Positions 1-19,614 of a DNA stretch of 35,723 bases are shown here, piece by piece. The DNA is from Desulfobacterales bacterium (GTDB lineage: Bacteria > Desulfobacterota > Desulfobacteria > Desulfobacterales > JAHEIW01). The DNA lies in contig JASFPE010000003.1 in NCBI GenBank assembly GCA_050116155.1, forward strand, positions 1 through 35,723. Reading direction: 5' to 3'. Under the pieces are notes generated by a model. It saw only the letters and a list, made by a program, of their open reading frames with translations. It searched no databases and was not told the DNA's origin. Made by a program: the position numbers and the translations under genes. Each line of letters begins with the position of its first letter. Within the stretch, counting starts at the first letter, position 1.

Positions 1-248
1 CTTTAAGGATGATTTGCGCCGCCTGTTCGGGCACCACCATCCTGGGCGGCAATGCCGCCATCCAGAGCTTCGGCCAGCGCCTGTCCGCCGTTGCCGTTGA
101 TGTCCGCTGCCACCCGTTTGGCACCATCGACATTGACGTCTGCAACGATGATAAGCGTTGCGGCACCGGCGAGTTCCTTACACAGCGCCCGGCCGATGCC
201 GGAGGCCCCGCCGGTAATAATCGCAACTTTTTTGCTCGAATCATTCAT
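1..248 (-). pseudogene. SDR-family oxidoreductase, apparently internally deleted and frameshifted; runs off the window edge
   Basis: N-terminus has the SDR Rossmann motif (VAIITGGASGIG...VADVN...EALD). The frame stops at 81 aa with no NNAG or YxxxK. A shifted frame at 61..2 reads MAALPPRMVVPEQAAQIILK, which resembles an SDR C-terminal helix. Confidence 0.65.
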
Positions 249-316
249 GTCACAAAATATCCTCTTGACTTATTCCCAAAATCGATCATCTGACTGGTCC
301 GTCTGCGGAATAATAT

Positions 317-1198: not shown

Positions 1199-1232
1199 AT
1201 TTTATTACCTCGATATTCGAATAATTAAAGTG

Positions 1233-2213
1233 TTATCTCAAGGGCCAGTTTCGAAAATAGAGTCTCATCTTAAACCATCGGCCGTAAAGCCCATAAGGCT
1301 CAAAGATCAACACCAGCAGAATAGTGACCCCGAAGACCACGGGAACCATTTCCTTGAATTCACTGAAGAATTGAGGTACCAGAATCACAAACGCAGCCCC
1401 CATGATGGAACCTTCCACCGAGGCCAATCCCCCGATGATCACAGCCACGAAAAGGGTGATGGATTCCATAAAGGTAAACATGTTGGGCTCCAGATACCCC
1501 AGTAAAAGGCCGTAAAGTCCGCCCTGAATCCCGGTGTAAAATGAACTGACCGCAAAGGCCAGCAGCTTGTAGCGGGTCAGATTCACCCCGATAACCTCGG
1601 CCGCGATATCATTATCACGAATGGCGATGAAGGCGCGCCCCACAAAAGAAGAAATGATATTGTAGGTGGTCAGCGTAAACAACAGGGCAATCAAGAAATA
1701 GAAATAATAATTGAAATTGATACGCGACAATCCAAAGATGGGATCGAGCTTTTGGATGATAAGCCCCATGCGGCCGCCGGACAGCATCTCAGAGTTCAGG
1801 AATACCTGATATACGGCAATGCCGAAGCCCAGGGTGGCAATGGCCAAATACGGTCCCTTCAATCGCAAAGAAGGAAAACCCACCACAATGCCGAACAATC
1901 CTGCCGCCAGACCGGCACTCAAAAGGCTTATTGGCCAGGGGATGCCGAAACGACTGAGATGCCCGAAGGTGAAGGCGCCGATGGCCAGAAAACCCGCCTG
2001 CCCGAAGGAGATCTGACCGGTGTATCCGATGAGCAGGTTCTGTCCTTGAACCCCGATCGAGTAAATGAAAATAACGGTCGCCGTATAGATGATGTATTCC
2101 GGTGCGAACCAGGGCAAGAGCAGGAGAAAGACGACAAGGGCACCCACCCATACGCGGGTCCAGGGTTTGCGAATGAGTTGCAGTTCTTGTTTATAATTTT
2201 CAATCAGATCCAT
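1233..2213 (-). CDS. livM: Branched-chain amino acid-type ABC transporter permease (LivM-like)
   Basis: NLLIGYTGQISFGQAGF, LRLKGPYLAIATL, GRAFIAIRDN, PYGLYG motifs. Confidence 0.9.
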   Translation of the reverse strand: MDLIENYKQELQLIRKPWTRVWVGALVVFLLLLPWFAPEYIIYTATVIFIYSIGVQGQNLLIGYTGQISFGQAGFLAIGAFTFGHLSRFGIPWPISLLSAGLAAGLFGIVVGFPSLRLKGPYLAIATLGFGIAVYQVFLNSEMLSGGRMGLIIQKLDPIFGLSRINFNYYFYFLIALLFTLTTYNIISSFVGRAFIAIRDNDIAAEVIGVNLTRYKLLAFAVSSFYTGIQGGLYGLLLGYLEPNMFTFMESITLFVAVIIGGLASVEGSIMGAAFVILVPQFFSEFKEMVPVVFGVTILLVLIFEPYGLYGRWFKMRLYFRNWPLR

Positions 2214-2218
2214 AAGGG

Positions 2219-4024
2219 CTACCTGTTGTACATCTTATCGATCACGTCTGCGTAGCGTTCTTCCAGAAACCGGCGCTTGACCTTTTTTGTGGGCGTGACG
2301 TCCCCATCCTCCTCATAGAAGCGTCTCGGGAGCAATTTAAATTTTTTGATGGTCTCCACCTGAGAAAGCGTCTGATTGACCTTTAAGACTTCATTGTCAA
2401 TAAGCTTTTGTATCTGTTCGTTCTGGGTGAGATCCGCAAATGTGGTGAATGGTATCCGCTGGTCCTGGGCATATTTGGTAACGTTGTCTTCGTCGATCAG
2501 AATCAAGGCAGTGAGAAATTTGCGCCCATCTCCGATGACCACCGCATCCTGGATGTAGGTGCTGAATTTTAATTTGTTTTCGATATAGGCAGGGGTGATG
2601 TTTTTGCCGCCGGCCGTGATAAGAATATCTTTTTTGCGATCCAGGATTTTTAGATGGCCATTCTCCATTTCACCCACATCTCCGGTGTGCAGCCAGCCGT
2701 CTTTGATGGTCTGGGCCGTAAGCTCGGGATCCTTGAAATAGCCCTTAAAAACATTGGCTCCCTTGGCGAGGATTTCGCCGTCTTCGGCGATTTTGACCTC
2801 CACGCCGGGCAGCGGTTCGCCAACGAATCCCCAACGGGGCCTGTTGATGCGCTGGACGGCAATCACCCCGGTGGATTCCGTTTGCCCATATCCTTCTCTT
2901 AAGGGCAGGCCCAGGGCGTTGTAGTATTGAAACAACTCTGGAGAGGCCGGCGCCGCGGCGCACACCGCATAACGGATGCGTTCGAATCCTAGCTGTCGCT
3001 TCAAATGATAGAGCACCAGCCAATACAGCGGCCAGTAAAGGACGCCCCACTGTATTCGTTGTCGGCTGCCTTTAGGGGTGCTTACATAGCGCAGGCCCAC
3101 GCCAATGGCCAGCTTGTAGAGGACCTTTTTTAGCAGCGTGGAGTCGGACATACGGATGGTGATCATCGAAACAAATTTTTCCCATATGCGCGGGACGCTG
3201 CAAAAGACGGTCGGGGAGATTTCCCGCAGGTTCTGGGGCAGGGTATCAATGCTCTCCACAAAATTCACGGTGCCTCCGGCCCAAACCGCCTGGAAAAGGG
3301 AGACCAGATTTTCATAGATATGGGCCAGCGGCAGATAGGAAAGCAGCTCATCGTTTTCATAAAACGGGGTGGCCTCAATAAAGGAATTCGTAAGCTTCAA
3401 AATATTGCTGTGGGAAAGCATGGCTCCTTTGGGCGGTCCAGTGGTGCCGGAGGTATAAATGATCATGGCCGTGTCATCGGGATCAATGGCTTTCATGCTG
3501 GCGCTAATAGATTCGGGGTGATCATGCAGGTAGGCGCGACCGCTGGAAAGAAACTCGTCGAAAAATATAATTTTCTCATGGGAAAACCCCCAGAGTCCCT
3601 TGGGATCCCAAACCACCACCTGAGCCACCTTGAGGTCGTCGATGATCTGGAGAACTTTGTCAACCTGCTCCTCATTTTCCAGGAAGAGCACCCGGGCCTC
3701 CGAATGACCGACCACGTAGGCAACCTGTTCCGGAGCCGAAGTGGGATAGACACCACAGGTGCACCCTCCGGCGGCCATGGCCGCTAAATGACAGATCAAC
3801 CATTCGGGACGATTATCCCCGAGTATTGCCACGCGGTCCCCTGGATCTAAACCCAGGGATAGCAAACCGGATGCCACCTCACGGACACTCTGGCCGTACT
3901 GTGTCCATGATATCCGGTTCCAGATGCCGTAATCCTTGTGTCGGAGGGCGACCCGGCCTTTAAAGCGCTGCACCTGTTGGAAAAAGAGCTCCGGAAAGTG
4001 AGTCGCCTGGTTTTGCATTACCAT
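2219..4024 (-). CDS. Long-chain acyl-CoA synthetase / AMP-binding protein (start may be 4018)
   Basis: IYTSGTTGPPKG, YLPLAH, EGYGQTE, GWLHTGD, DRKKD...GGKNI adenylate-forming motifs. Confidence 0.9.
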   Translation of the reverse strand: MVMQNQATHFPELFFQQVQRFKGRVALRHKDYGIWNRISWTQYGQSVREVASGLLSLGLDPGDRVAILGDNRPEWLICHLAAMAAGGCTCGVYPTSAPEQVAYVVGHSEARVLFLENEEQVDKVLQIIDDLKVAQVVVWDPKGLWGFSHEKIIFFDEFLSSGRAYLHDHPESISASMKAIDPDDTAMIIYTSGTTGPPKGAMLSHSNILKLTNSFIEATPFYENDELLSYLPLAHIYENLVSLFQAVWAGGTVNFVESIDTLPQNLREISPTVFCSVPRIWEKFVSMITIRMSDSTLLKKVLYKLAIGVGLRYVSTPKGSRQRIQWGVLYWPLYWLVLYHLKRQLGFERIRYAVCAAAPASPELFQYYNALGLPLREGYGQTESTGVIAVQRINRPRWGFVGEPLPGVEVKIAEDGEILAKGANVFKGYFKDPELTAQTIKDGWLHTGDVGEMENGHLKILDRKKDILITAGGKNITPAYIENKLKFSTYIQDAVVIGDGRKFLTALILIDEDNVTKYAQDQRIPFTTFADLTQNEQIQKLIDNEVLKVNQTLSQVETIKKFKLLPRRFYEEDGDVTPTKKVKRRFLEERYADVIDKMYNR

Positions 4025-7136: not shown

Positions 7137-7173
7137 ATAATAAAATTCTATACTTATGGTGGAGGACAATTCC

Positions 7174-7689
7174 ATGATACCCAAAAGAACCTGCCTGAAT
7201 TTAATTTGTGGCCTTCTGGTTCTAACCTTTTTAATCGGACCCGGCCAGCTGTCATGGGCGCAGGAAAAGTTAGCATCCAAAAAGGATTCGGCGCTCAGTA
7301 AAACGACAAAAAAGACGACCAAAGCCATCAAAAAAGATGCGGACTATTGGTTCAGGAAGGGTGCCCTGGTGGCCACCTATGGAAACGACAAGGCTGCCAT
7401 CCGGTTTTTTGGTAAAGCCATTGCCCTGAATCCGAATCACAGTCGTGCCTATTTCGAACAGGGGGTATCCTATGGCCAGCTAGGCGATTATCAGCAGGCG
7501 ATTTCCTTAATCAACCGGGCGCTCAAGTTAGATGCGCAAAACGGGATCTATTATTACGGCAGAGGACGTGTTTATCTTTTGTCGGGGGATGATGCCAAAG
7601 CCATGGAAGATTTCAAGCATGCCGCTGAATTGGGTGATGAAGATGCCTTGAATTATTTAGATTATATCGGACAGAGTCAAGCACATTAG
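7174..7689 (+). CDS. Secreted tetratricopeptide repeat protein (ORF track start 7156)
   Basis: Signal peptide ending SWA-Q; about three TPR units (KAIALNP...AYFEQG, RALKLD...YYYGRG); GGAGGA upstream of ATG 7174. Confidence 0.8.
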   Translation: MIPKRTCLNLICGLLVLTFLIGPGQLSWAQEKLASKKDSALSKTTKKTTKAIKKDADYWFRKGALVATYGNDKAAIRFFGKAIALNPNHSRAYFEQGVSYGQLGDYQQAISLINRALKLDAQNGIYYYGRGRVYLLSGDDAKAMEDFKHAAELGDEDALNYLDYIGQSQAH

Positions 7690-8074
7690 GCCATAATCCT
7701 GTATCCCCGTCTTTAAAATATCGGATGGTTGTCATCGTTAACCCGATCAATGAAAACCCTTCTAAGCTCGCTGCATAAGGGGGTTGCTCCACAACTATGT
7801 GCGGCGCAAGTTTTTCCCTTCTTATTTTCAGGCTCAATACCCATCGGAAATCCATTAAAATAGTCCTTTATACATCAAAAAATCATCCCCTGGACGATAG
7901 TCATCCCACAAAAATTGCTTTAAAAGGTCTAAAATACTATCGATGCCCCTGGCGCTCGGAATGGGTTTATGGGTGTCAACCACCACAGAACAATCAAGTG
8001 CCGGTGACAGGATACTCGCACCTCACGTGTTTCAAACAAGATCATCAATCATATAAAAAAGGAGAACTAGAATT

Positions 8075-8953
8075 ATGATTCTCATCGGTGAAGACTTAAA
8101 TGTTATGTCCGGGGAGATCTCGCGCGTCATAAAGGAACAGGAGCCGGGGCCGATCCAGGAATGTGTCACGGAACAGACGAAAAATGGCATGGATTACCTG
8201 GACGTGAATGTGGGGCCTGTAAAAAAGGATCCGGAAGGAACCATGGAATGGCTCATCAATACGGTCCAGGCAGTTACCGAGCTGCCATTGTGTTTGGACA
8301 CCACCAATCCGGTGGCCATGGAAGCCGGCCTTAAGTTTTGCCAGAAAAAGGCTCTCATCAATTCGGCATCCGGCGCCACCGAAAGTATCGAAACCATGTT
8401 GCCGCTGGCCGCCAAATATTCGGCCGATGTGGTCCTTTCCGTCATAAACGATGCCGGCTTGCCCTCGGATGCAGACGAACGGGCAGCCAGTATCATGGAG
8501 TCGGCGGCCGTTGCTAATGAATTGGGAATTCCCAATGAGAATATCTGGGTGGATCCGGTGCTGCTGCCCATCGGTGTGGATCAACGCCAGGTAACGGCAT
8601 ATCTTGAATTCATACAGATGCTGCAGGATTTAATGCCGGGAGCTAAATCCACATGTGGATTGTCAAATTTATCCTATGGTGCCCCCAAGGAGCTCAAAAG
8701 CTTGCTTAATCGTACTTTCCTGGTGATGATCGGCAGATATGGCCAGCATTCTGCCATTGTCAGTGGCTTCGACCATGAGCTTATTCGTCTCATCCGGGGA
8801 GAGGAGCCGGAGATGGTTGAGCTCATTTATCGCGCCATGGATGAAGACGATATGGATACCTCCGCACTTCCGCAAAAGGAGCTCGAGTACGTCAAAACGG
8901 CACAAGTTCTCATGGGGAAGTCACTGTATTCACATTCCTGGTTAGAAGTCTAA
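8075..8953 (+). CDS. acsE: Methyltetrahydrofolate:corrinoid Fe-S protein methyltransferase (pterin-binding family)
   Basis: MILIGEDLN, LDVNVG, LCLDTTN, INS, WVDP, GLSNLSYG pterin-binding barrel motifs; adjacent to acsD/acsC; AGGAG RBS. Confidence 0.85.
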   Translation: MILIGEDLNVMSGEISRVIKEQEPGPIQECVTEQTKNGMDYLDVNVGPVKKDPEGTMEWLINTVQAVTELPLCLDTTNPVAMEAGLKFCQKKALINSASGATESIETMLPLAAKYSADVVLSVINDAGLPSDADERAASIMESAAVANELGIPNENIWVDPVLLPIGVDQRQVTAYLEFIQMLQDLMPGAKSTCGLSNLSYGAPKELKSLLNRTFLVMIGRYGQHSAIVSGFDHELIRLIRGEEPEMVELIYRAMDEDDMDTSALPQKELEYVKTAQVLMGKSLYSHSWLEV

Positions 8954-8968
8954 AAGGAGGCAGATATT

Positions 8969-9868
8969 ATGAAATATGAGCCACCGTTGGAGAAAATCTC
9001 TGTAAACATTAGAGAAACCGTGTTGGGACACGGGGAAAAAACCTTCAAAATAGGGGGAGAAAACACGCTGCCTTTCCATTCTTTTGAAGGCACGCTTCCG
9101 AATCTACCGGGACTTGCCCTGGAAATTCTGGATACAGAACCGCAGAATTGGGCCCCGTCGATTTTGGAACCGTACGAAGATGTCGTTTCCGACCCGGTCA
9201 GCTGGGCCAAGAAATGTGTGGAGGTATTCGGGGCCGAGATGCTCTGCCTGCGGCTTGTGAGCACCGATCCCATGGGCCAGGACGGATCACCGCAGGCAGC
9301 GGCCGAGATGACTAAAAAAGTGGCAGATGCCGTGGATGTCCCGCTGATTGTATGGGGGACGGATATGGAAGAAAAGGACGCTCAGGTCCTAACGGAAGTT
9401 GCCCGGGTGTGTGCCGGGAAAAATTTACTTCTAAGCCCTGTGGTCAAGGGGAATTACGAAAAGATTGCCCAGGCTGCACTGGAGCACGGGCACGCCATCG
9501 TAGCGCAGGCATCGATGGATGCCAATTTAACCAAAGAATTAAATATCGTCCTTTGCAAATTTTTTCCGCCAGAAAAGATCGTTGTTGATCCGACCGCTTC
9601 GGCTCTGGGTTATGGACTCGAATATACATTCTCGATCATTGAAGAAATCAAGCAATTCGGACTTACCGATAAGGACAAAATGATGCAGATGCCCATCATA
9701 TGCGATTTCGGAGGGGATTGCTGGAGAACCAAAGAGGCCAAAGAAAATCGTGAACAAGGCATTCTCTGGGAGGCCACAACCGGGATTTCGTTTCTTCTGG
9801 CCGGAGCCAATCTCCTGATCCTCAGGCACCCGGAGGCACTCAAGCTGATAAAAGAGATGGTTGTTTAA
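8969..9868 (+). CDS. acsD: Corrinoid iron-sulfur protein small subunit (AcsD/CdhD)
   Basis: IGGENTLPFHSFEG, DPVSWAKKC, VDPTASALGYGLEY, DKMMQMP, WRTKEA, LRHPE motifs. Confidence 0.92.
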   Translation: MKYEPPLEKISVNIRETVLGHGEKTFKIGGENTLPFHSFEGTLPNLPGLALEILDTEPQNWAPSILEPYEDVVSDPVSWAKKCVEVFGAEMLCLRLVSTDPMGQDGSPQAAAEMTKKVADAVDVPLIVWGTDMEEKDAQVLTEVARVCAGKNLLLSPVVKGNYEKIAQAALEHGHAIVAQASMDANLTKELNIVLCKFFPPEKIVVDPTASALGYGLEYTFSIIEEIKQFGLTDKDKMMQMPIICDFGGDCWRTKEAKENREQGILWEATTGISFLLAGANLLILRHPEALKLIKEMVV

Positions 9869-9942: not shown

Positions 9943-11292
9943 ATGGCGCTCAAAGGAGCGGAAATAATGAAAATGTTGCCCAAAACCAACTGCAAAGAAT
10001 GCGGTTATGCAACCTGCTTTGCGTTTGCCATGAAGCTGGCTACCGGGGGCGCTAAACTCGACGACTGCCCTTATCTCGATCCGGAAGTTAAGACACAATT
10101 GGAGGCCGCAATGGCTCCGCCCATAAAGCTTGTGACCATCGGAACCGGCGAAAATGCGCTGTCCATTGGTGAAGAAGAAGTCATGTTTCGGCATGAAAAG
10201 ACCTTCTTTCACGAACCCGGCATCGCCATCCTGATTTCGGATCAAGCAGACGAATCGGAAATCGAAGATAAGTTAAAGCGCGTTAAGGCTTTTGATTTTG
10301 AGAGAATCGGGCAAAAGCTCAGGATCAATCTGCTGGCGCTTTGTTTTGAATCCGGCGATAAGGATAAATTCGAGGCCTTGGTCAAAAAGGCTTATGATAC
10401 CACGGAGTTTGCGCTGATCCTCATCTCGGAGGATACGGATGTCTTGTTTTCCGCCGCCGCCCTGTGTGCGGACAGAAAACCACTGGTGTATCCCATAACC
10501 AATGAGAATATGAGTGCCGCTGTCCCGAAACTCAAGGAACTCGGTGTTCCGGCAGGCGTCAGGGGGGAAAGCATCGAGGCGGTCGTATCCGTGACGTCGG
10601 ATCTAAAAGCCGCAGGAATCGAAGACATGGTTTTGGATCCCGGCTCAAAAAATATGGTGGAAGGCATTCAAAACCAAACCCTCATCAGAAGGGCTGGTTT
10701 GAAAAAGGGTTTCAGGCCCCTGGGTTATCCGACGATTGCCTTTCCCTGTTTCATGTACCCGGATAAATATAAGGAGACGGTGGCCGCCGCCGCCCTGATG
10801 ACCAAATATGCCGGCATCGTGGTGTTGTCTCAAGCCGATGAGCATTTTCTTATGCCGCTGCTGGTACACCGGTTTAATATTTATAGTGATCCCAGAAGGC
10901 CGATGACCGTCGAAGAAAAGGCATACGAGATCGGCAACCCGGATGAGAAATCTCCAATCCTGATCTCCACCAATTATGCCCTGGATTATTTTATCGTGTC
11001 TGCCGCCATTGAGGAGGCCGATATGCCGGCCTATTTATGCATCAAAGACACCGAAGGGCTGGGAGTCATGGCGGCCTGGACCTCCGGCAAGTTCAACGGG
11101 GAGGCGATTGCGGAATTTTTCGAGAAACACGGCATGCAAGACAAAGTTAAACATAGAAAGCTGATCATTCCGGGTGTGGCCAAAAAGCTGGTGGCAGAAT
11201 TGGAGGAGGAGCTTCCCGGTTGGGAAATCATCCTGGGTCCCCTGGAGGGAAGCGATATCCCAAAATTTTTATCTGAGGAGTGGACGGCATAA
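9943..11292 (+). CDS. acsC: Corrinoid iron-sulfur protein large subunit (AcsC/CdhE)
   Basis: N-terminal 4Fe-4S motif LPKTNCKECGYATCFAFA...CPY; FRHEKTF, PLGYP, NIYSDP, HRKLIIPG, LPGWEIILGP. Confidence 0.93.
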   Translation: MALKGAEIMKMLPKTNCKECGYATCFAFAMKLATGGAKLDDCPYLDPEVKTQLEAAMAPPIKLVTIGTGENALSIGEEEVMFRHEKTFFHEPGIAILISDQADESEIEDKLKRVKAFDFERIGQKLRINLLALCFESGDKDKFEALVKKAYDTTEFALILISEDTDVLFSAAALCADRKPLVYPITNENMSAAVPKLKELGVPAGVRGESIEAVVSVTSDLKAAGIEDMVLDPGSKNMVEGIQNQTLIRRAGLKKGFRPLGYPTIAFPCFMYPDKYKETVAAAALMTKYAGIVVLSQADEHFLMPLLVHRFNIYSDPRRPMTVEEKAYEIGNPDEKSPILISTNYALDYFIVSAAIEEADMPAYLCIKDTEGLGVMAAWTSGKFNGEAIAEFFEKHGMQDKVKHRKLIIPGVAKKLVAELEEELPGWEIILGPLEGSDIPKFLSEEWTA

Positions 11293-11819
11293 TGGAAGCG
11301 TTATCTGCGTCCGAAGAACAAGAAATTAGAGCAGGACTCGCTGAAATACTGGCACAGTGTGAGGCAGACCGAAGCCAGCTGATCCCCATTTTACAGAAGG
11401 TACAGGAGAGTTTCGGATATCTTCCCAAGCTGGCCATCAGCGATATCGGATCTCATTTGGGGATGACCGATGTTCAGATTTATGGTGTGGCCTCGTTCTA
11501 TAATCATTTTCGGTACATCCCTCTGGGAAAACATCCCGTTCAGATGTGTATGGGAACGGCATGCCACATGGTCGGCGGCGGGCTGGTTCTGGAAGCCCTG
11601 GAAAGGGCACTGGAAGTTGAAGTGGGCGGAATAACCGCAGACAAAGAGTTCAGTTTGGATAGGGTTGCCTGCATCGGCTGCTGCGGATTGGCTCCGGTGA
11701 TGGTGATTGGTGACAAGATTTTTCCGAAAATGACCTCTACGAAAGTGGACGAAGTGCTGGTCAACCTTAAGATGGAGGAAGAAGAAACTGCCAAGCAAGA
11801 AGCAGAAGAAGAAAATTAG
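11292..11819 (+). CDS. NuoE/HydC/HoxE-like [2Fe-2S] subunit
   Basis: LIPILQKVQ..FGYLP, VASFY, CMGTAC...CIGCC; ATG overlaps the acsC stop (TAATG). Confidence 0.9.
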   Translation: MEALSASEEQEIRAGLAEILAQCEADRSQLIPILQKVQESFGYLPKLAISDIGSHLGMTDVQIYGVASFYNHFRYIPLGKHPVQMCMGTACHMVGGGLVLEALERALEVEVGGITADKEFSLDRVACIGCCGLAPVMVIGDKIFPKMTSTKVDEVLVNLKMEEEETAKQEAEEEN

Positions 11820-11847
11820 GAATTGAGGCATTTATCAATAAGAGAAC

Positions 11848-13779
11848 ATGATGACATTTGATGAAATCAAGCAAAACGCCGTCGCGGAATGGGTGTCATT
11901 AGAACAGGACGGAATCCCGGTGATTCGGATTGGTGCCGCTACCAGTGACCGGGCTGCCGGCGCGTTGGAAGTGATTGCGGAATTCGAAAAAGAGCTTGCC
12001 AGGTTAAAGGTGGAGGCCAGGATTGTGCCGACGGGTTCTGTGGGATATGGCAACTACGAACCTCTCGTGATCATCAGCAAACCCGATTATCCCCGCATCT
12101 GCTATAACAACGTTACGCCGGATGTGGTTCCGCGTCTGGTTGAAGGGTATCTCCAGGAGGATGATCCCTGCATGGAACTGGCGCTGGGGACACTTGAAGG
12201 CGGCGACGACATTGATACTCCGCCCCATATCCCTGAATTGCCCCGCAGTGAGCATGAACAGAGGTTGCTTCTTAGAAATTCCGGATTTATCAATCCAGAG
12301 AATATCAATCACTACATTGCCCTGGGCGGTTACAGCGCTCTGACCAAGGCCCTGGAAATGAACCCGGAGGATATCATCGCGGAAATCAAGCAATCCGGAT
12401 TGCGGGGCAGAGGTGGGGCCGGATTTCCCACCGGCAGAAAACTGGAAGCCTGCCTGATGTCTGCCGATACGCCCAAGTATGTCATCTGCAACGCGGATGA
12501 AGGCGACCCCGGCGCGTTCATGGACCGGGTTGTCCTCGAGAGTGACCCCCATGCCGTTTTAGAGGGCATGATCATCTGTGCTTTTGTGCTGCAATCTTCT
12601 CAAGGGTATATTTATACGCGTATGGAGTATCCTTTGGCCGTGGAACGGCTCCAAACCGCAATTGAACAAGCCAAGCAATTCGGATTGTTGGGCGAAAATA
12701 TCCTGGGAACAGGCTTCAGTTTCGACATCGAGGTGTTTCAAGGTGCCGGGGCTTTTATTTGCGGGGAATCCAGCGCCCTGATGTATTCCCTCGAGGGAAA
12801 AAGAGGCTTCCCGCGGGTCAGACCCCCCCAGTCCATCGCATCCGGGTTTCGGCAAAAGCCCACCCAGCTCAACAACGTCAAATCCTTCGCCTATATCCCC
12901 GTGATCATCGAACGGGGAAGTGAATTCTTTGCTGACATCGGCACCGACGGCAGCAAGGGCACGGCCGTCTTTGCTCTGGCGGGCAAGGTGGAAAACGTCG
13001 GGTTGGTGGAAGTGCCCATGGGAACAACTCTGCGGACGGTCGTCGATGATATCGGCGGAGGCGTAACCGGCGGCAAAACGTTTAAAGGCGTGCAGACCGG
13101 CGGGCCTTCGGGAGGATGTTTGCCGGAATTATTTTTGGATACCCCCATCGACTTTGATTCCCTTCTGGAAGCAGGGGCAATGATGGGATCCGGCGGCATG
13201 ATCATCATGGACGAAGATAACTGCATGGTGGACGCCGCCCGTTTTTTCCTGGACTTCACCGTGCAGGAATCCTGTGGCAAGTGTGTCCTGTGCCGCCTGG
13301 GAACAACCCAGATGCTCAGCATTTTGAACGATATTGTCAGTGGCAAGGGCAATTCCGAGGATATCGAACAGCTCATCGGTTTGGGTGAAGATATCATCGC
13401 CGGATCCTTGTGCGGCCTGGGAAAATCGGCCCCAAACCCGGTGCTGACCACCATTCGATATTTTAAAGACGAGTACGAAGCCCATATTCAGGAAAAACGC
13501 TGTCCGGCACTGGTGTGCAGTGACCTGATTGCCTATTACATCATTCCGGAAAAATGTTACCGCGGGTGCGAGCACTGTATCGTCGTTTGTCCCACCGAAG
13601 CCATTGTCGAGCACCCCAAACGCTATAAGGTAGTTGATCAAGAAAAATGCGTCAAATGTGGAAATTGTTTGGAAGTCTGTCCTCCCGAATATGACGCGGT
13701 GGTCAAAATTTCACCCATCAGTGAGGTACCCCCCAGTGAGATGCCATCCGCTGAGGCGCCGCCCGACGAGGATGAATAA
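11848..13779 (+). CDS. NuoF/HydB/HoxF-like FMN- and NAD(H)-binding subunit with C-terminal 2x[4Fe-4S]
   Basis: SGLRGRGGAGFPTG, CNADEGDPGAFMDR, GAGAFICGE, GGPSGGC, ESCGKCVLCR..SLCGLG, HIQEKRCPALVC, two ferredoxin motifs. Confidence 0.92.
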   Translation: MMTFDEIKQNAVAEWVSLEQDGIPVIRIGAATSDRAAGALEVIAEFEKELARLKVEARIVPTGSVGYGNYEPLVIISKPDYPRICYNNVTPDVVPRLVEGYLQEDDPCMELALGTLEGGDDIDTPPHIPELPRSEHEQRLLLRNSGFINPENINHYIALGGYSALTKALEMNPEDIIAEIKQSGLRGRGGAGFPTGRKLEACLMSADTPKYVICNADEGDPGAFMDRVVLESDPHAVLEGMIICAFVLQSSQGYIYTRMEYPLAVERLQTAIEQAKQFGLLGENILGTGFSFDIEVFQGAGAFICGESSALMYSLEGKRGFPRVRPPQSIASGFRQKPTQLNNVKSFAYIPVIIERGSEFFADIGTDGSKGTAVFALAGKVENVGLVEVPMGTTLRTVVDDIGGGVTGGKTFKGVQTGGPSGGCLPELFLDTPIDFDSLLEAGAMMGSGGMIIMDEDNCMVDAARFFLDFTVQESCGKCVLCRLGTTQMLSILNDIVSGKGNSEDIEQLIGLGEDIIAGSLCGLGKSAPNPVLTTIRYFKDEYEAHIQEKRCPALVCSDLIAYYIIPEKCYRGCEHCIVVCPTEAIVEHPKRYKVVDQEKCVKCGNCLEVCPPEYDAVVKISPISEVPPSEMPSAEAPPDEDE

Positions 13780-13781
13780 GC

Positions 13782-14462
13782 ATGCAACAAGTTGAATTAA
13801 CCATCGATGAAAAACCCGTCAAGGCCGACGCCGGGACCAAGATTTTAGATGCCGCATTGGCGGCCGACATATACATTCCCAACCTATGTTATATACCCGA
13901 GGCCGAACTCCCCTATGGGGGGTGCCGCCTGTGTTATGTCCATGTCGAAGGCCGCGGCCTGGTGACCGCGTGTACGTTGCCGGTACAAAACGGCATGAAG
14001 GTGCAGACCCAGACTCCGGAAGTCATGCGGGTCCGGCGGACTGCCTATAAGTTGCTTATCGCTTACCATAACCTTGATTGTCGGGCCTGCTGGAAGAACA
14101 AAAAATGCGATCTGCAAAAACTTGCGGCCAAAGTCAAAGTCAAGCTCAAGCGGCCCGAAGACTTCAGAGGATTGCCCACGGAGTTTCTGCCGCTGGACAC
14201 TACCAATCCCTATATCACCTACGATCCCATTCAGTGCCTTATTTGCGGCAAATGTGTCTGGGTGTGCAGTCGGCTGCATGGAGAGCCGCTGCTGGATTTT
14301 GCCTATCGGGGAAATAAGACCAGACTGACGCTGTCTCCAGACGCCTCATTGGTAGAGGAAAAATGTCCTTCCTGTGGTCAGTGTGCAGCCGTATGCCCGA
14401 CTGCTGCGTTACGGCCCCAGGAGCCCTTAGCACAAGAGGAGCGCTCCGGAGAGGTTAGATAG
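13782..14462 (+). CDS. NuoG N-terminal / HoxU-like Fe-S subunit with no catalytic domain
   Basis: IPNLC..GGCRLC..TAC [2Fe-2S]; HNLDCRAC.....C His(Cys)3; CLICGKCVWVC and CPSCGQCAAVCP; only 226 aa. Confidence 0.88.
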   Translation: MQQVELTIDEKPVKADAGTKILDAALAADIYIPNLCYIPEAELPYGGCRLCYVHVEGRGLVTACTLPVQNGMKVQTQTPEVMRVRRTAYKLLIAYHNLDCRACWKNKKCDLQKLAAKVKVKLKRPEDFRGLPTEFLPLDTTNPYITYDPIQCLICGKCVWVCSRLHGEPLLDFAYRGNKTRLTLSPDASLVEEKCPSCGQCAAVCPTAALRPQEPLAQEERSGEVR

Positions 14463-14473
14463 TAAAACATTTA

Positions 14474-14590
14474 TGCCACTAAGACACAAAGACACAAAGT
14501 TGAATATTAACCAAAATGTTCCGCGTTTCGCTTGGCGTCTTGGTGCCTTTGTGGCAAATTATTCTCCGCCTCCGGCGGATCCGGATTAGG
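14474..14590. repeat. Palindromic 8-bp-period element (CACAAAGA-like arms) plus small GC hairpin
   Basis: tgccactaagacacaaagacacaaag ... cttggcgtcttggtgcctttgtggca; then tccgcctccggcgga at 14565-14579. Confidence 0.7.
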
Positions 14591-14632
14591 TCGTAAGAAT
14601 ATCAAATAACAACACACTAAAGGGAGTAAACA

Positions 14633-15679
14633 ATGACTGAATTGACACCAAAACAGAGGGTAATGAAACTTTTCAATAAAGAGCCGATCGATGTCATGCC
14701 CGTTTTTAGCGGTCAGGGTATGGTCCTCATCCAGGCGATCCAGGAGATGGGCATTCGATTCCCGCAGGTCCATACGTCGGCCGAATATATGGCCGGTTCG
14801 GCGATCAAAACAGCTGAAATGTTCGACTTTGACGCCTTGATCATCCCCTATGACATGTGCACCATTCCCGAAGCGATGGGAAGGGGCATCAGTCTGTATG
14901 AAGAATCGGATGATATCCTTTTTCCGACCGTTCCATATAAGTGGAATTCCCTGGATGATGTGGAATTCCCCGACGATATCCTCGAAAGGGGTCGGATGCC
15001 CTTGGTAGACGAGGCCATTAAAATTGGCAAGGCTTACGAGAACGAAAAGTATGCCGTCGGTGGATGGCTACTGGGGCCTTTCACCATGGCCGGCCAGGTT
15101 TATGAACTGGACCTGTTGCTGAAGGGACTTAGAAAAGACAAAGATAGAATCGAGGCCTTTTTATCGGATATGACCGATTTGGTAATTAAGATCGGTCAAC
15201 ACTATGAGCAAATCGGCGTGGACTACATCAGTATCCGGGAGATGGGTTCGGGATCGGACCTTATTTCGCCGCGCATGTGGAAAACGCTCATCCAGCCAAA
15301 CCTCACAAGGGTTTTTGACTCCTTGAAAATACCAACGATCAATCATATCTGCGGATCTACCGACCTGATTATTGAGATGATGCACGAATGCGGGGCCGAT
15401 GCCATCAGTGTGGATCACAAGAATACGGTTACTGAAACGCGAAAGAAGCTCGGAGACGATGTCCTGCTGTTCGGATATTTTAATCCCTATGACGCCCTGG
15501 TTACCGGCGATGTTGCCGACGTGGAGCCGGAGATCAAAAAGAACATCGACGACGGCGTGGATGCAGTATGGCCGGGATGTGATCTGTGGCCGGATGTTAA
15601 AAGAGAGAATGTCGAGGCCTATGTCCGCACCGTAAGGGAATACGGCAAAAAAGCTTCACCGGCCGTAGGAAGACTCTAA
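14633..15679 (+). CDS. MtaA/CmuA (UroD-fold) cobalamin-dependent methyltransferase
   Basis: TPKQRV..., IIPYD...EAMG, RGRMPLVDEAI, GPFTMAG, Zn-type HICG and PGC motifs; directly upstream of a corrinoid protein. Confidence 0.85.
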   Translation: MTELTPKQRVMKLFNKEPIDVMPVFSGQGMVLIQAIQEMGIRFPQVHTSAEYMAGSAIKTAEMFDFDALIIPYDMCTIPEAMGRGISLYEESDDILFPTVPYKWNSLDDVEFPDDILERGRMPLVDEAIKIGKAYENEKYAVGGWLLGPFTMAGQVYELDLLLKGLRKDKDRIEAFLSDMTDLVIKIGQHYEQIGVDYISIREMGSGSDLISPRMWKTLIQPNLTRVFDSLKIPTINHICGSTDLIIEMMHECGADAISVDHKNTVTETRKKLGDDVLLFGYFNPYDALVTGDVADVEPEIKKNIDDGVDAVWPGCDLWPDVKRENVEAYVRTVREYGKKASPAVGRL

Positions 15680-15751: not shown

Positions 15752-15853
15752 TGGAATAATGGAATGGTGGAATAATGGAATATTGGTTTTAAAAGGAATG
15801 AATCCGTTTAAATAGAACCCAACATTCCAGCATTCCATGACTCCAACATTCCA
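15752..15853. repeat. Palindromic 8-bp-period element (TGGAATAA-like / ATTCCA arms)
   Basis: tggaataa-tggaatgg-tggaataa-tggaatat-tgg ... ccaacattccagcattccatgactccaacattcca. Confidence 0.75.
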
Positions 15854-15923
15854 ATTACATGAAACACCTCAGATACTATGTTTTACAACTTTAAGAGATG
15901 TACCAAATCATAAGGAGGGTACT

Positions 15924-16595
15924 ATGGACGATGCAAGAAAAAAAGAAATTCTTGAAAAATTGGCCGAAGCCGTTGTGGAATACGATGAAGACATGGCCAA
16001 AGAGTGGTCACAGGTCGCGCTGGACGAGAACATGGATGCATTTGAGGCCATCATGAACGGTCTGGCGGCGGGTATGGAAACCGTTGGTGACCTCTATGAC
16101 CAACAGGAATATTTTGTTCCCGAGATGCTGATGTGTGCCGACGCCCTGTATGCCGGACTGGATATTCTCAGGCCTCACATCAAAGCGGACGAACGAAAGA
16201 GAATGGGACAGGTGGTTATCGGCACGGTGCAGGGGGATGTGCATGACATTGGTAAAAATATAATTAAACTCATGTTTGATGTGGGCGGTTTTGAAGTTCA
16301 TGATCTGGGGCGCGATGTTCCCCTGGAGAAATTTGTGGAAGAACAGATGAAAACCGATTCGGAAATTGTGGCCATGTCGGCCATGATGACCACCACCATG
16401 ACGGGCATGAAAAAGGTCATCGAGATGATCAAGGAAAAGAATCCAGATGTGGCCATCATGCTGGGCGGGGCCCCGGTGACGCAAGACGTGGCAGACCTGT
16501 TTGGCGCAGACGGTTACGCGGAATCGGCCGGCAATGCCGTTCAGGAAGCCATTAAGATGATCAGCCAGTTGAGAAAACTGCAGGAAAAGGGTTAA
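15924..16595 (+). CDS. Methyltransferase cognate corrinoid protein (MtaC/MttC-like)
   Basis: Cap domain (EYFVPEML), GTVQGDVHDIGKN (DxHxxG), DLGRDVP, SAMMTTT, GGAP, GADGYA; AAGGAGG before ATG 15924. Confidence 0.92.
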   Translation: MDDARKKEILEKLAEAVVEYDEDMAKEWSQVALDENMDAFEAIMNGLAAGMETVGDLYDQQEYFVPEMLMCADALYAGLDILRPHIKADERKRMGQVVIGTVQGDVHDIGKNIIKLMFDVGGFEVHDLGRDVPLEKFVEEQMKTDSEIVAMSAMMTTTMTGMKKVIEMIKEKNPDVAIMLGGAPVTQDVADLFGADGYAESAGNAVQEAIKMISQLRKLQEKG

Positions 16596-16634
16596 CACAG
16601 ACTGAAAGAAGGAGAGATGCAAATGGAGGATAAA

Positions 16635-18683
16635 ATGGCCAAGGTAATCTTTCAACCTTCCGGTCGAAGAGGAGAGGTGCCGAAAGAAATCAGCGTTATC
16701 GAGGCCTCACGCCTATTGGGTGCAGACATCGAAGCGTTGTGCGGGGAAAAGAAAGTCTGTGGCAAGTGCAAGGTCCGGATCGAAGAGGGGTTTTTCGAAA
16801 AATACGGTATCGACTCCAAGCTATCGCATGTTAGTCCCTGGCAGGATGAGGAGGAAAAGTTCATCCATGCTGAAGAAAGATCGACGGGATACCGGCTGGG
16901 ATGCGTTGCCAAAATCCTCGGAGATCTCCTGGTCTTCGTGCCGGAAGAATCTCGGGCCGGCAAACAGGTGGTCAGCAAGGCCGCGCGCGATATACACATT
17001 GATCACGATCCGGCGGTCAAATTGTACTACGTCGAAGTCGAAAAGCCGTCATTTGAGGAACCCACCGGGGATTTTGAACGGATCTGTGCTGAACTGGAAA
17101 AGCAATATGACCTCAAAGATCTCAGCGTAGATATACAGACACTGCGGCAGCTGCCAGGGGCCTTGCGTAAAGGGGATTGGAAGGTCACGGTTAGCATATG
17201 GATGGATAAAGAAATCATTCGCGTTCGGCCGGGGAATATTGAAGCCAATTATGGTATGGCCATAGATGTTGGAACCACAACGGTGGCCGCTTATTTTTGC
17301 AACCTCTCCACCATGGAAGTCATCGACACGGTCTCCATGATGAACCCCCAGTGCAAATATGGCGAAGATGTCATGAGTCGCATCACCTATCACATGATGA
17401 ACGAGGGCGGCCTTGAAAAGATGAGCAATGACATCATCGAAGCCCTCAACACCCTGATCGACCAGGCGATTGCCGCCACCTACCCACCCAAGAAAAAGGT
17501 CAAAAAGAAAAAGGGTGAAGAAGGCCCCGATGAATGGATCGAAGTGCCGGAGGAGGGCAAGACCTATCTTCGTCTCGAAAAGGAAGATATCGAAGATATT
17601 ACGATTGGCTGCAACACCGCCATGCATCATATTTTACTTCAGCTCGACCCGGAACATGTGGGCCTGGCCCCATTTCCGCCGGTAATCCACCACAGCCTGG
17701 ATATCAAAGCCCGTGATTTGAGGATCCATATCAACCCTTCATCGAATGTGTTTGTGTTGCCGAACGAGGCCGGTTTTGTGGGAGCGGACAATGTCGGTGT
17801 CTTGATTGCCGAGGAACCTTACAACAAAGATGACATCCAGCTGATTATCGATATCGGAACCAATGGCGAGCTGGTTCTGGGTAACAAGGATAAGCTGATC
17901 TCATCGTCCTGTGCCACCGGTCCGGCATTGGAGGGTGCCCAACTGGCCTTCGGGATGCGGGCTGCCCCCGGGGCAATGGAGCGTATCAAGATCGATCCCG
18001 AAACCCATGAGGTGGATTACAAAGTTATCGGCAGAGATGCATGGCGCAAATATTCCGAGCCCAAGGATATGAAAGCCAAAGGAATCTGCGGATCCGGAAT
18101 TCTGGATTTGCTGGCCGAGCTTTACAAGGCCGGCATCGTCACCAAAAGTGGCGCCTTCAACAAAAAGGATCCGAAGTCCGACCGCTTCCGTAAAAACCCG
18201 GATACCGGCCAGTATGAATTTGTGCTGGCCTGGGCCGAAGAGACCAGTATCGATAAAGATATAGTGGTCACCCAGAAGGATGTGCGGCAGATCCAACTTG
18301 CCAAGGGAGCGCTTTATGCCGGCTGTAAACTGATGGTGCAACGCATGGGTGTTGAGAAATTGGACAAAGTCAAAATTGCCGGAGCTTTTGGAACCCACGT
18401 CGACCGCGAAAAGGCCCTGATCATGGGGTTGTTTCCGGATTGTGAGGTCGAAAAAATCGTTTCGGTCGGCAATGCCGCCGGAGATGGCTGCCGGGCGGCT
18501 CTTTTGAATCGCGAAAAACGCGTGGAGGCCAACTGGGTATCCCGTAATGTAGAATATATTGAACTAACTGTTGAGCCGAATTTTCAGCAGGAGTTTATGG
18601 GAGCCATGCAGTTGCCGCATATGACCGATACCTTTCCCCATCTGGAAGGACTCGTACCGGAAGAAATCTTAAATCAGAAATAA
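16635..18683 (+). CDS. ATP-dependent reductive activator of corrinoid proteins (RACo/AcsV-like, ASKHA domain); start may be 16617
   Basis: N-terminal [2Fe-2S] CGEKKVCGKC...RLGC; IDVGTTT, YGEDVMSRI, GFVGAD, DIGTNGE, ATGPALEG, GICGSG, IAGAFG, GNAAG. Confidence 0.92.
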   Translation: MAKVIFQPSGRRGEVPKEISVIEASRLLGADIEALCGEKKVCGKCKVRIEEGFFEKYGIDSKLSHVSPWQDEEEKFIHAEERSTGYRLGCVAKILGDLLVFVPEESRAGKQVVSKAARDIHIDHDPAVKLYYVEVEKPSFEEPTGDFERICAELEKQYDLKDLSVDIQTLRQLPGALRKGDWKVTVSIWMDKEIIRVRPGNIEANYGMAIDVGTTTVAAYFCNLSTMEVIDTVSMMNPQCKYGEDVMSRITYHMMNEGGLEKMSNDIIEALNTLIDQAIAATYPPKKKVKKKKGEEGPDEWIEVPEEGKTYLRLEKEDIEDITIGCNTAMHHILLQLDPEHVGLAPFPPVIHHSLDIKARDLRIHINPSSNVFVLPNEAGFVGADNVGVLIAEEPYNKDDIQLIIDIGTNGELVLGNKDKLISSSCATGPALEGAQLAFGMRAAPGAMERIKIDPETHEVDYKVIGRDAWRKYSEPKDMKAKGICGSGILDLLAELYKAGIVTKSGAFNKKDPKSDRFRKNPDTGQYEFVLAWAEETSIDKDIVVTQKDVRQIQLAKGALYAGCKLMVQRMGVEKLDKVKIAGAFGTHVDREKALIMGLFPDCEVEKIVSVGNAAGDGCRAALLNREKRVEANWVSRNVEYIELTVEPNFQQEFMGAMQLPHMTDTFPHLEGLVPEEILNQK

Positions 18684-18818: not shown

Positions 18819-19382
18819 TTAGTATTCGATGCCCTTCCTGGCTCTGGCGCCCTGATAGTAGGGATGCTTGACCTGCACAAATTCTGTCACATAGTCAGCC
18901 TGATCCATAATTATGTCGGGCGCATTGATGCCGGTCATCACCAGCTCGACACTGTGTTTGCATTTTTCGATGAGCTCGAGAAGCTGTTCTCTTTTTAAAA
19001 CATCGAAAATGATGGTATCCAATATTTCGTCACATATGAGCAGGTGAGTTCCTCTTTCAACGGCCTCAAATGCAAAACTTAATCCTTTGGCCGCATGTTC
19101 GTAATGTGCCGGCTTTGGGCCACTGGTCATTATAAACGGATGTTTGCCAGGGCACCAATACTGGATGTTAGGGATCTTCTTAAAGATGGCCACTTCCGCC
19201 GAAGTTCCGGATTTCATGAATTGAACAATATCCACCTGAAGGCCATCGCCTGCTGCTCTCATCGCCAGTCCTATTGCCCGCGTGGTTTTACCGACACCCT
19301 GTCCATAATAGATGTGAATGAAACCAAGGCCTTTTTCCTTAATGTATCCGGTACGTTTCTGTGGATAAAATATGGTTTCCAC
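18819..19382 (-). CDS. cobO: Cob(I)alamin adenosyltransferase (CobO/BtuR family)
   Basis: GFIHIYYGQGVGKTTRAIG, VQFMK, LICDEI, ELVMTG, ADYVTE, KHPY..G..ARKGIEY; likely GTG start at 19382 after a purine-rich stretch (start uncertain). Confidence 0.88.
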   Translation of the reverse strand: METIFYPQKRTGYIKEKGLGFIHIYYGQGVGKTTRAIGLAMRAAGDGLQVDIVQFMKSGTSAEVAIFKKIPNIQYWCPGKHPFIMTSGPKPAHYEHAAKGLSFAFEAVERGTHLLICDEILDTIIFDVLKREQLLELIEKCKHSVELVMTGINAPDIIMDQADYVTEFVQVKHPYYQGARARKGIEY

Positions 19383-19441
19383 CCCCTTCTCAATTGCCAG
19401 ATGATAAAATATTTCTGTTATAAATGTAGAACCGGTTTTTC

Positions 19442-19614
19442 CGTTGCAGCGATTGGTTGTTTTCAAATCCCGTCGCGGCGGGATTACAACCGCAACGATT
19501 AAAGCACTGACGTGCTTTTGCCTTTTCGGCCTATGGCCGAAAAGGCAAGGCACCCGCTATGCGGGTGGTCGTTGACTCAGCGATCTTTTAAATTAAGATC
19601 ATCTTTGCGTCAAC
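19442..19614. other. Five abutting stem-loops upstream of cobO (candidate structured RNA or mobile-element remnant)
   Basis: Includes perfect 14-bp stem ttgccttttcggcc-tat-ggccgaaaaggcaa and cacccgc-tat-gcgggtg. Confidence 0.55.

Follow-up and report, generated by a model that had tools for sequence, protein, structure and literature searches.

In a 35,723-nucleotide stretch of DNA from a Desulfobacterales bacterium (GenBank assembly GCA_050116155.1, contig JASFPE010000003.1; this whole 35.7-kb stretch of the contig is called the window), three genes encoding a flavoprotein module of the BfuABC family lie in the middle of a nine-gene operon for a corrinoid iron-sulfur protein (CFeSP) and methyltransferases. 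The gene order on the plus strand is AcsE-AcsD-AcsC-BfuC-BfuB-BfuA-MtaA-like methyltransferase-corrinoid protein-RACo (Table 1). We tentatively propose that this module serves the CFeSP, perhaps also RACo, as a dedicated redox unit for the reduction of Co(II) to Co(I). The enzyme family is already known; the gene context and the partner inferred from it are new.

The initial annotation of the window had called the module HydABC/HoxEFU-like, with bifurcation-type architecture but without a catalytic subunit. Pfam domains, motifs and matches in the Protein Data Bank (PDB) bear out a HydABC/bifurcation-type B/C core combined with an A subunit that lacks a catalytic domain. Calling of open reading frames (ORFs) gave three frames, all on the plus strand (11280/11292-11819, 11848-13779 and 13782-14462). 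BfuC has two candidate starts, an ATG at 11292 that overlaps the TAA stop of AcsC (TAATG) and a GTG at 11280; the ATG is probably the start, and the coordinate 11292 given for the module initially fits this junction. The translated BfuC carries CMGTAC and CIGCC motifs and has the C1 [2Fe-2S] site of the Bfu family. In the translated BfuB, the FMN/NADH motifs GLRGRGGAGFPTG and CNADEGDPGAF, the Cys/His site HxxxxxCPxxxC (HIQEKRCPALVC) and the motifs for two [4Fe-4S] clusters (CYRGCEHCIVVCP and CVKCGNCLEVCP), each with four Cys and ending in CP, could all be read as described before, and Pfam found the FMN domain (PF01512, E = 7.8e-43), the NuoF 4Fe-4S domain (PF10589, E = 8.8e-31) and C-terminal Fer4 dicluster matches (residues 564 to 613). 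BfuB was also aligned in 57 rows, taken from loci with similar A subunits and from the paralogues of the same genome. The B1 [4Fe-4S] columns C476/C479/C482/C522 are conserved in this alignment, the eight Cys columns of the B3/B4 ferredoxin domain (570 to 611) are present in the window protein, and Cys columns 552 and 557 of B2, the Cys/His site between the NuoF core and the ferredoxin domain, are kept in 57/57 rows. The metal at B2 may be Zn or a [2Fe-2S] cluster.

BfuA contains a 2Fe-2S domain (PF13510, E = 2.8e-21), a His-ligated 4Fe-4S domain (PF10588, E = 2e-10) and Fer4 matches; it has at least one 2Fe-2S and one 4Fe-4S ferredoxin-type domain, as does a BfuA of the family. That it ends after its Fe-S domains was confirmed: the terminus lies 21 residues past the last CP motif, and the Pfam scan of the protein returned neither PF02906 (H-cluster) nor PF00384 (molybdopterin). 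Since PF02906 in A defines the [FeFe]-hydrogenase type of HydABC, the module is not of that type. As had been noted, there is also no hydrogenase or formate dehydrogenase (FDH) gene among the 33 window ORFs scanned with Pfam. A protein with PF03063 (CO dehydrogenase [CODH]) was not among these ORFs either, and the locus is therefore not a Codh-Bfu cluster.

The seven best full-length PDB matches of BfuB are all B subunits of bifurcating enzymes (E = 2.8e-199 to 3.9e-164), namely, Sporomusa Stn/Nfn (8oh5_B and 9bov_B), Acetobacterium HydB (7q4v_B), NfnB (9n5u_B), NiFe-HydB (7t2r_B), 8a6t_B and Thermotoga 7p5h_B. The chains of bifurcating enzymes align with BfuB residues ~23 to 614 (8a6t_B with residues 55 to 613). 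The alignments with the nonbifurcating FdsB and Nqo1/NuoF chains end at ~543 to 553, before the C-terminal ferredoxin part, and BfuB is therefore HydB/BfuB-like and not HoxF/NuoF-like. The HoxEFU label thus held for the A subunit only, which matches HoxU (5xf9_B, E = 1.2e-28), and failed for the B subunit with its C-terminal ferredoxin domain and Cys/His site. Like the HoxEFU diaphorase of bidirectional [NiFe] hydrogenases, the module has three genes in E-F-U order and a HoxU-sized A subunit (NF005745, 148 bits), but the NCBIfam scores for HoxU and HoxE are below their cutoffs (148 versus 333 and 120 versus 224, respectively), B carries the additional C-terminal 2x[4Fe-4S] domain and the Cys/His site, and HoxYH genes are absent. 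A HoxEFU(YH) enzyme, which is characterized by a HoxF without the C-terminal ferredoxin domain and by linked HoxY/HoxH, is therefore not encoded here.

One site departs from the family. The B5 [2Fe-2S] columns 33/64/68 of the BfuB alignment are S/S/G in the window protein and S/S/(C or S) in the five orthologues from loci L002 to L006 (see below), whereas the other 51 rows have C/C/C (43 rows) or G or A/C/C (8 rows). By this alignment, the N-terminal domain of the window BfuB has lost the Cys ligands of B5, and the [2Fe-2S]/Zn site that is part of the Bfu family there is missing. According to the portions of Li et al. 2025 (PMC11829005) available to us, the minimal bifurcating unit is B1-FMN-C1, with B5 outside it, and Zn was found at B5 in one enzyme; the loss is therefore no argument against a working core. 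In every other feature tested, the predicted proteins are members of the Bfu family, and the module may couple NAD(H), ferredoxin and a third substrate by bifurcation.

Relatives of BfuA were searched among proteins of 124 to 396 amino acids, and 621 proteins out of 822 candidates matched with E values of ≤1e-10. The full-length relatives listed have ~208 to 244 amino acids, with identities of 64 to 88% for Desulfobacterales-type sources and ~50% for Dehalococcoidia/Chloroflexota. In an alignment of 18 sequences, the ligands C36/C48/C51/C64, H96/C100/C103/C109, C152-C162 and C195-C205 are invariant. In the PDB, BfuA matches HoxU (242 amino acids) over its full length and FdsA, HydA and NiFe-HydA in their N-terminal Fe-S regions. 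A quick maximum-likelihood tree of the 57 BfuB rows with SH-aLRT support placed all B subunits paired with an A of ~200 to 250 amino acids (36/36) in one clade (support, 100), separate from those paired with FDH-like or HdrA-like A subunits of ~900 to 1350 amino acids. Judged by these comparisons, the short A is a conserved family of ~210 to 240 amino acids and not a truncation.

The genes on both sides of the module encode the candidate partners. AcsC and AcsD of the window are predicted to form a CFeSP: the large subunit has PF04060 and PF03599, and the small subunit has PF03599; AcsC scored 565.7 bits against NF003195 (cutoff, 306) and AcsD scored 362.7 bits against NF003376 (ACDS delta; cutoff, 280). 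The ligands of the N-terminal [4Fe-4S] cluster of AcsC (C17, C20, C25 and C42) are invariant in an AcsC alignment. AcsE matched best the methyltransferases (MeTr) of Moorella and Carboxydothermus in the PDB (1f6y, E = 9.9e-55; 2yci) and the O-demethylase MT II 4o0q with just 5.3e-30. No oxidoreductase was found in cis in the Pfam scans of the window; the only redox proteins of the operon besides the module are the CFeSP and RACo. All nine genes were covered by contigs from the RNA libraries of four wetland metatranscriptomes. These contigs bridge AcsE/AcsD (8326-9110), AcsC/BfuC (10996-11387) and BfuC/BfuB (11744-12067), and a further one (14439-14660) spans the intergenic stretch between BfuA and the MtaA-like gene and reaches 24 letters into the former and 28 into the latter, which is below the 31-letter rule for bridging. 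The depth of these contigs is unfit for ranking the genes, a single transcript is unproven by them, and DNA carryover is possible. Scans of the operon for sigma-54 and for sigma-70/terminator signals were no better than scans of shuffled sequences. Two upstream frames, orf93 (7797-8078) and a TPR gene (7156-7689), were not matched anywhere in the orthologous loci by tblastn (E ≤ 1e-3) and were therefore not counted in the operon. The stop of orf93 overlaps the start of AcsE; the frame encodes 93 amino acids, has no Pfam match and may not be a real gene.

Table 1. Genes of the operon and its neighbor in the window, and the adenosyltransferase site in orthologous loci
Feature	Length (amino acids)	Coordinates	Strand	Domains and matches
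AcsE-type methyl-tetrahydrofolate:corrinoid/Fe-S protein methyltransferase paralogue	292	8075..8953	+	PF00809
CFeSP small subunit, AcsD/CdhD-like	299	8969..9868	+	PF03599, E = 1.4e-46
CFeSP large subunit, AcsC/CdhE-like, N-terminal [4Fe-4S]	449	9943..11292	+	PF03599, E = 3e-87; PF04060, E = 2.7e-15
BfuC/HydC-like thioredoxin-like [2Fe-2S] subunit	179	11292..11819	+	PF01257, E = 2.6e-45
BfuB/HydB-like flavoprotein	643	11848..13779	+	FMN/NADH site, B1 [4Fe-4S], Cys/His B2, C-terminal 2x[4Fe-4S]
Short BfuA	226	13782..14462	+	[2Fe-2S], His-ligated [4Fe-4S], 2x[4Fe-4S]; no catalytic domain
URO-D family MtaA/CmuA-like methyltransferase	348	14633..15679	+	PF01208, E = 1.3e-59; top PDB match MtaA 4ay7, E = 3.1e-42
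MtaC-type corrinoid protein	252	15837..16595	+	PF02310, PF02607; TIGR02370, 206 bits
RACo-type ATP-dependent reductive activator of corrinoid proteins	688	16617..18683	+	PF14574, PF17651, PF17650, PF00111
CobA/CobO/BtuR-type ATP:corrinoid adenosyltransferase (operon neighbor)		18819..19553	-	PF02572, E = 8.9e-47
Adenosyltransferase site, L002		14808-15842 and 16101-16628		
Adenosyltransferase site, L003		8613-9218		
Adenosyltransferase site, L006		15068-16045		

The operon is kept in relatives of the bacterium. When one genome per species was scanned, 567 stretches (loci, numbered with L) proved to encode a BfuA relative, and among the best 80, which were kept, six loci from Desulfobacteraceae-type metagenome-assembled genomes (MAGs; L002 to L007) have the same gene order. 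All nine genes are present in L002, L004 and L006; L003, L005 and L007 run into the end of their contigs and show the parts that they reach. An orthologue with at least 90% identity (90 to 92%) was found in 2 of 40 relatives searched, both of the same genus, and the other 38 gave ≤55% or no match; the operon is therefore an accessory unit of patchy spread. The gene after RACo is of the CobO type in the window and in three of the five orthologous loci that extend that far (L002, L003 and L006), and in L004 the cobalt transporter CbiM is at this position. With the CobO-type adenosyltransferase, another function that depends on Co(I) is encoded close to the Bfu genes.

The CFeSP genes of the operon form a second, paralogous set, as judged by their identities. 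A canonical cluster for CODH/acetyl-CoA synthase (ACS) with the order RACo-AcsD-CODH-ACS-AcsC-AcsE is encoded on another contig of the same genome (C16; contigs of this genome are numbered with C), and AcsE/AcsD/AcsC of the window are only 45/42/48% identical to it. They are closer (51 to 57%) to those in five Dehalococcoidia loci (L012, L032, L043, L044 and L061), three of which (L012, L044 and L061) have the order FTHFS or other-BfuA-AcsE-AcsD-CdhA-CdhB-CdhC-AcsC-BfuC-BfuB. In the portions of Merino et al. 2020 (PMC7325909) available to us, which cite Adam et al. 2018, acsED-cdhABC-acsC is described as a "hybrid" CODH/ACS operon, and "nuo" is named among its neighbors in a figure legend and is not discussed; by gene order, the three Dehalococcoidia clusters are this hybrid operon flanked by Bfu genes. 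AcsE-AcsD-AcsC of the window belongs to the lineage of these Bfu-carrying acsE-acsD-cdhABC-acsC clusters, but the window operon lacks cdhABC and adds the MtaA-like methyltransferase, the MtaC-like corrinoid protein and RACo.

The stop of AcsC and the start of BfuC overlap or abut in five of the seven loci read, which belong to two phyla; the junction is TAATG or TGATG in the window, L004 and L006 and GTGA, with a GTG start of BfuC, in L012 and L061. In the BfuB tree, the three Acs-linked rows from Dehalococcoidia are sister to the six operon rows (support, 97), and in an AcsC tree of 13 rows, the 7 Bfu-linked proteins are split from the 6 canonical ones (three from Desulfobacteraceae and three from Bacillota) with a support of 100. 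Because the two trees agree on one Bfu-linked lineage, AcsC and BfuB have traveled together. In the window, L002, L004 and L006, AcsC follows AcsD with no cdhABC in between, but the Bfu genes have been retained and are still coupled to AcsC. Loss of cdhABC thus left the Bfu genes in place beside AcsE/AcsD/AcsC. AcsC/AcsD are the only redox-active genes common to the Desulfobacteraceae and Dehalococcoidia contexts. Both Desulfobacteraceae genomes checked have two AcsC/AcsD sets, and each of three Dehalococcoidia genomes has one.

The initial annotation had listed the CFeSP cluster, the RACo [2Fe-2S] cluster and an enzyme encoded elsewhere, such as methylene-tetrahydrofolate (methylene-THF) reductase, as conceivable third redox partners. 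The CFeSP gains comparative support from the AcsC-BfuC junction in two phyla, from the congruent BfuB and AcsC trees and from the retention of the Bfu genes without cdhABC. RACo is a possible partner: it is encoded in the operon and beside a short-A Bfu gene set in L081, but only one of three Dehalococcoidia genomes with a linked cluster, of unstated completeness, has it. In our reading, BfuB and BfuC form an NADH/ferredoxin flavoprotein core to which BfuA adds a short, HoxU-like Fe-S wire, and the most probable redox partner is the co-encoded paralogous AcsC/AcsD and not a hydrogenase or an FDH. NADH, probably along with reduced ferredoxin at the C-terminal domain of BfuB, would be oxidized at the B/C core, and the electrons would pass along the four BfuA clusters to the [4Fe-4S] cluster at the N terminus of AcsC, possibly also to the [2Fe-2S] cluster of RACo. 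Inactive Co(II) corrinoid would thereby be rereduced to Co(I), the supply of which would keep the methyl transfer chain of AcsE/CFeSP and of the MtaA-like methyltransferase and its corrinoid protein running. Physical contact, the direction of electron flow, the use of ferredoxin and the mode, bifurcation or confurcation, are predictions from gene content and gene context. The available portions of PMC6739815 name nothing more definite than "e.g., ferredoxin or flavodoxin" as the physiological source of electrons for corrinoid activators, and the potentials listed are -330 mV for the [2Fe-2S] cluster of AE, -450 mV for Co(II)/Co(I) of CoFeSP and -530 mV for a corrinoid protein, the last rising up to -250 mV with AE and ATP. 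These potentials are compatible with the proposed route.

Several findings weigh against a module dedicated to the CFeSP. Known Bfu enzymes have a two-electron metabolite with a potential of ~-400 mV as their third substrate; in this role, Co(II)/Co(I), a one-electron couple that is bound to a protein and lies near -450 to -530 mV, would be unusual. Corrinoid reactivation is needed once per some hundreds of turnovers (PMC6739815, portions available), which seems little work for a three-subunit enzyme. The Dehalococcoidia loci also encode CODH in cis, and this enzyme may be the actual partner. Outside this genome, the neighbors of most short-A Bfu trios are unrelated genes (L019, L023, L029, L058, L064 and L070); in this family, a partner is therefore only weakly indicated by gene order on its own. 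A tree of 38 BfuA rows, which is poorly resolved (10 of 35 branches starred), did not join the window A with the Acs-linked A subunits of Dehalococcoidia; its clade stands on a long stem (0.8) and is weakly (86) beside an orphan clade of C327, L081 and L064. The BfuA tree does not support coinheritance of A with AcsC and BfuB. Finally, a search for longer BfuC proteins (315 to 2000 residues), a range that covers an AcsC::BfuC fusion of ~620 amino acids, revealed no such fusion, and none of its 53 matches carries PF03599. A corresponding search with AcsC was restricted to 787 to 2245 residues and was therefore unable to list a fusion of this size; of its nine matches, seven are AcsC::pterin-methyltransferase, one is AcsC::RACo and one is another protein, and a BfuC domain is present in none.

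The proposal can be sharpened: BfuABC and the paralogous CFeSP may be one enzyme that has Co(II)/Co(I), reached via the [4Fe-4S] cluster of AcsC, as its third substrate, that regenerates Co(I) without ATP by confurcation of electrons from NADH and reduced ferredoxin, and that followed the hybrid acsEDC lineage in its inheritance in both Chloroflexota and Desulfobacterota. We regard this narrower version as unlikely. If true, it would establish a new class of Bfu enzymes and a physiological electron source for corrinoid reactivation.

A free-standing Bfu module is a somewhat improbable alternative. Its third partner would be encoded elsewhere or would be a diffusible carrier, and it would be coregulated with one-carbon/methyl metabolism to balance the NADH and ferredoxin pools, without specific contact with a corrinoid protein. 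Short-A trios among unrelated genes in many genomes, including one on C327 of this bacterium, the six BfuB-like genes of the genome and the departure of the BfuA tree from the AcsC/BfuB pattern speak for it. The AcsC-BfuC overlap kept across two phyla and the congruent BfuB and AcsC lineages do not fit, nor does the patchy, unit-like distribution of the operon (orthologues of at least 90% identity in 2 of 40 relatives). If the module only balances these pools, it merely adds one more ordinary member to a large family. The orphan trio (C327, 1290-4439; locus L096) has an A subunit of 211 amino acids that is 40% identical to that of the window; it is preceded by two genes with cNMP-binding domains, and a relative of it in L081 is divergent to a RACo gene.

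The second alternative, to which we give little credence, is an NAD/ferredoxin-coupling unit of CODH/ACS with CO/CO2 as the third substrate, which would act in trans with the CODH/ACS of C16 and whose CFeSP genes would be hitchhikers from an ancestral hybrid cluster. Indeed, the genome has a CODH/ACS on C16, the Bfu genes of L012, L044 and L061 flank CdhA-CdhB-CdhC besides AcsE/AcsD/AcsC, the genomes of these loci hold a single AcsC/AcsD set, and Codh-Bfu was proposed from the same argument of "sandwiched genes" in the available portion of Schut et al. 2022 (PMC9304861). However, the C16 cluster contains no Bfu genes, and in the window, L002, L004 and L006, the Bfu genes are still coupled to AcsC where cdhABC are missing between AcsD and AcsC. 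Furthermore, the published Codh-Bfu, as far as described in that portion, is of the CooS type and belongs to BfuB clade 49 of Firmicutes.

Electron exchange with the methylene-THF reductase MetFV is very improbable, although the module is in a one-carbon context, MetF is three genes upstream of a short-A Bfu in L037 and BfuA follows FolD-FTHFS in several Dehalococcoidia loci. The methylene-THF/methyl-THF couple has a potential of ~-200 mV and is not the midpotential third substrate expected of a Bfu core. Moreover, the immediate neighbors of MetF and MetV on C120 are a NuoE-like gene, a gene for a NuoF::GltD fusion (1044 amino acids) and a CCG/HdrB-like gene, and the idea of this reductase as the third partner, raised initially, lost ground because MetFV already has a flavoprotein partner. 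The gene order of this cluster (C120, 3814-11260; locus L102) is NuoE-like, NuoF::GltD, MetV, MetF, an ORF of 192 amino acids and CCG/HdrB-like, and it possibly encodes an NAD(P)H-linked methylene-THF reductase complex of unusual makeup. Equally remote is pairing with a distal hydrogenase or FDH catalytic subunit: the genome has 22 molybdopterin-domain matches, a single [NiFeSe] hydrogenase large subunit (the sole PF00374 match, on C176) and a single H-cluster-domain protein (the sole PF02906 match, 437 amino acids, on C284), and a molybdopterin-protein fragment lies upstream of AcsE in L002, but the FdhA-like proteins of C274 and C308 need no separate A because each carries its own BfuA-like N-terminal Fe-S region, the C284 gene is between HATPase_c genes and far from any Bfu gene, and the molybdopterin neighbor of L002 is absent from L004, L006 and the window. 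Other BfuB paralogues, on C56 and C33, have HdrA/MvhD-type partners.

How does the proposed CFeSP-linked module relate to known systems? As far as the BfuABC family is described in the available portion of Schut et al. 2022 (PMC9304861), the module has in common with it the FMN/NADH module, B1, the Cys/His site B2 and the C-terminal B3/B4 of BfuB, the [2Fe-2S] cluster of BfuC and the 2Fe-2S and 4Fe-4S clusters of BfuA, and its best PDB matches are the B subunits of bifurcating Stn/Nfn and of FeFe- and NiFe-Bfu enzymes. It differs in that BfuA has no catalytic domain, that no hydrogenase, FDH, POR, WOR, Nfn or CooS subunit is encoded in cis, that the genes are embedded in a CFeSP/methyltransferase operon and that the B5 ligands are lost. 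The Type 2/3 Bfu enzymes (NiFe-HydABCSL [7t2r] and Por-, Wor-, Bam- and Codh-Bfu) likewise have a short BfuA that is an Fe-S wire only, with separately encoded partners, and the His-ligated cluster is present in the window A as it is in Type 3, the window motifs being putatively assigned to A1 to A4; unlike the metabolite oxidoreductases of these enzymes, the candidate partner here is a corrinoid Fe-S protein. The partners listed in the available portion of Schut et al. 2022 (PMC9304861) are hydrogenase, FDH, Nfn, F420, Por, Wor, Bam, Codh, Mbh, Nuo and Rub, next to 17 clades of unknown function, and the words "corrinoid" and "methyltransferase" do not occur in its main text and one supplement (8,449 characters). 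Among open-access papers and preprints, we found none that describes a HydABC/Bfu-like module in an operon for a CFeSP or a corrinoid methyltransferase.

Dedicated reductases for corrinoid reactivation (RACo/AE and RamA) would serve the same need for reduction of Co(II) to Co(I), and RACo is co-encoded in the window, but the Bfu proteins, to which we ascribe such a role from their gene context, are an unrelated family. Reactivation of MetH uses methionine synthase reductase or flavodoxin. A Bfu-type module that is translationally coupled to a CFeSP gene and coinherited with it in two phyla is a concrete and testable candidate for the physiological donor that rereduces oxidized corrinoid cofactors in anaerobic methyl transfer systems (CFeSP, O-demethylase-type corrinoid proteins and RACo/AE). 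If the proposal holds, the list of Bfu partners would be extended from metabolite oxidoreductases to a cofactor-carrying protein, and some of the orphan short-A trios in Dehalococcoidia, Desulfobacterota and Bacillota would have a function.

Further observations concern the surroundings of the operon and other corrinoid proteins. Upstream of AcsE, L002 alone (8-3795) has the molybdopterin-oxidoreductase fragment together with an FAD_binding_4 (GlcD-like) gene and a CCG-domain gene; a PAS histidine kinase is encoded there in L004 and L006, in L006 together with a LuxR-type regulator. DUF3786 genes are present downstream in the window (28428-29039) and on C16 (7747-8376) beside the canonical acs cluster. 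Fusions in public proteins include AcsC with a pterin-binding methyltransferase (seven of P0124 to P0131, 790 to 823 amino acids) or with RACo (P0131, 1074 amino acids) and, in Oligoflexia MAGs, a BfuC/NuoE-like domain with the glycine-cleavage H-protein domain PF01597 (P0153 and P0155). A frame of 368 amino acids on C102 (643-1002) matches the CdhD family only where its profile covers the C-terminal corrinoid-binding region (positions 267 to 386) and may encode an HgcA-like mercury methylation protein. Twelve more MtaC-like corrinoid proteins (28 to 50% identity) were matched on 12 further contigs of the genome and therefore point to a broadly methylotrophic sulfate reducer.

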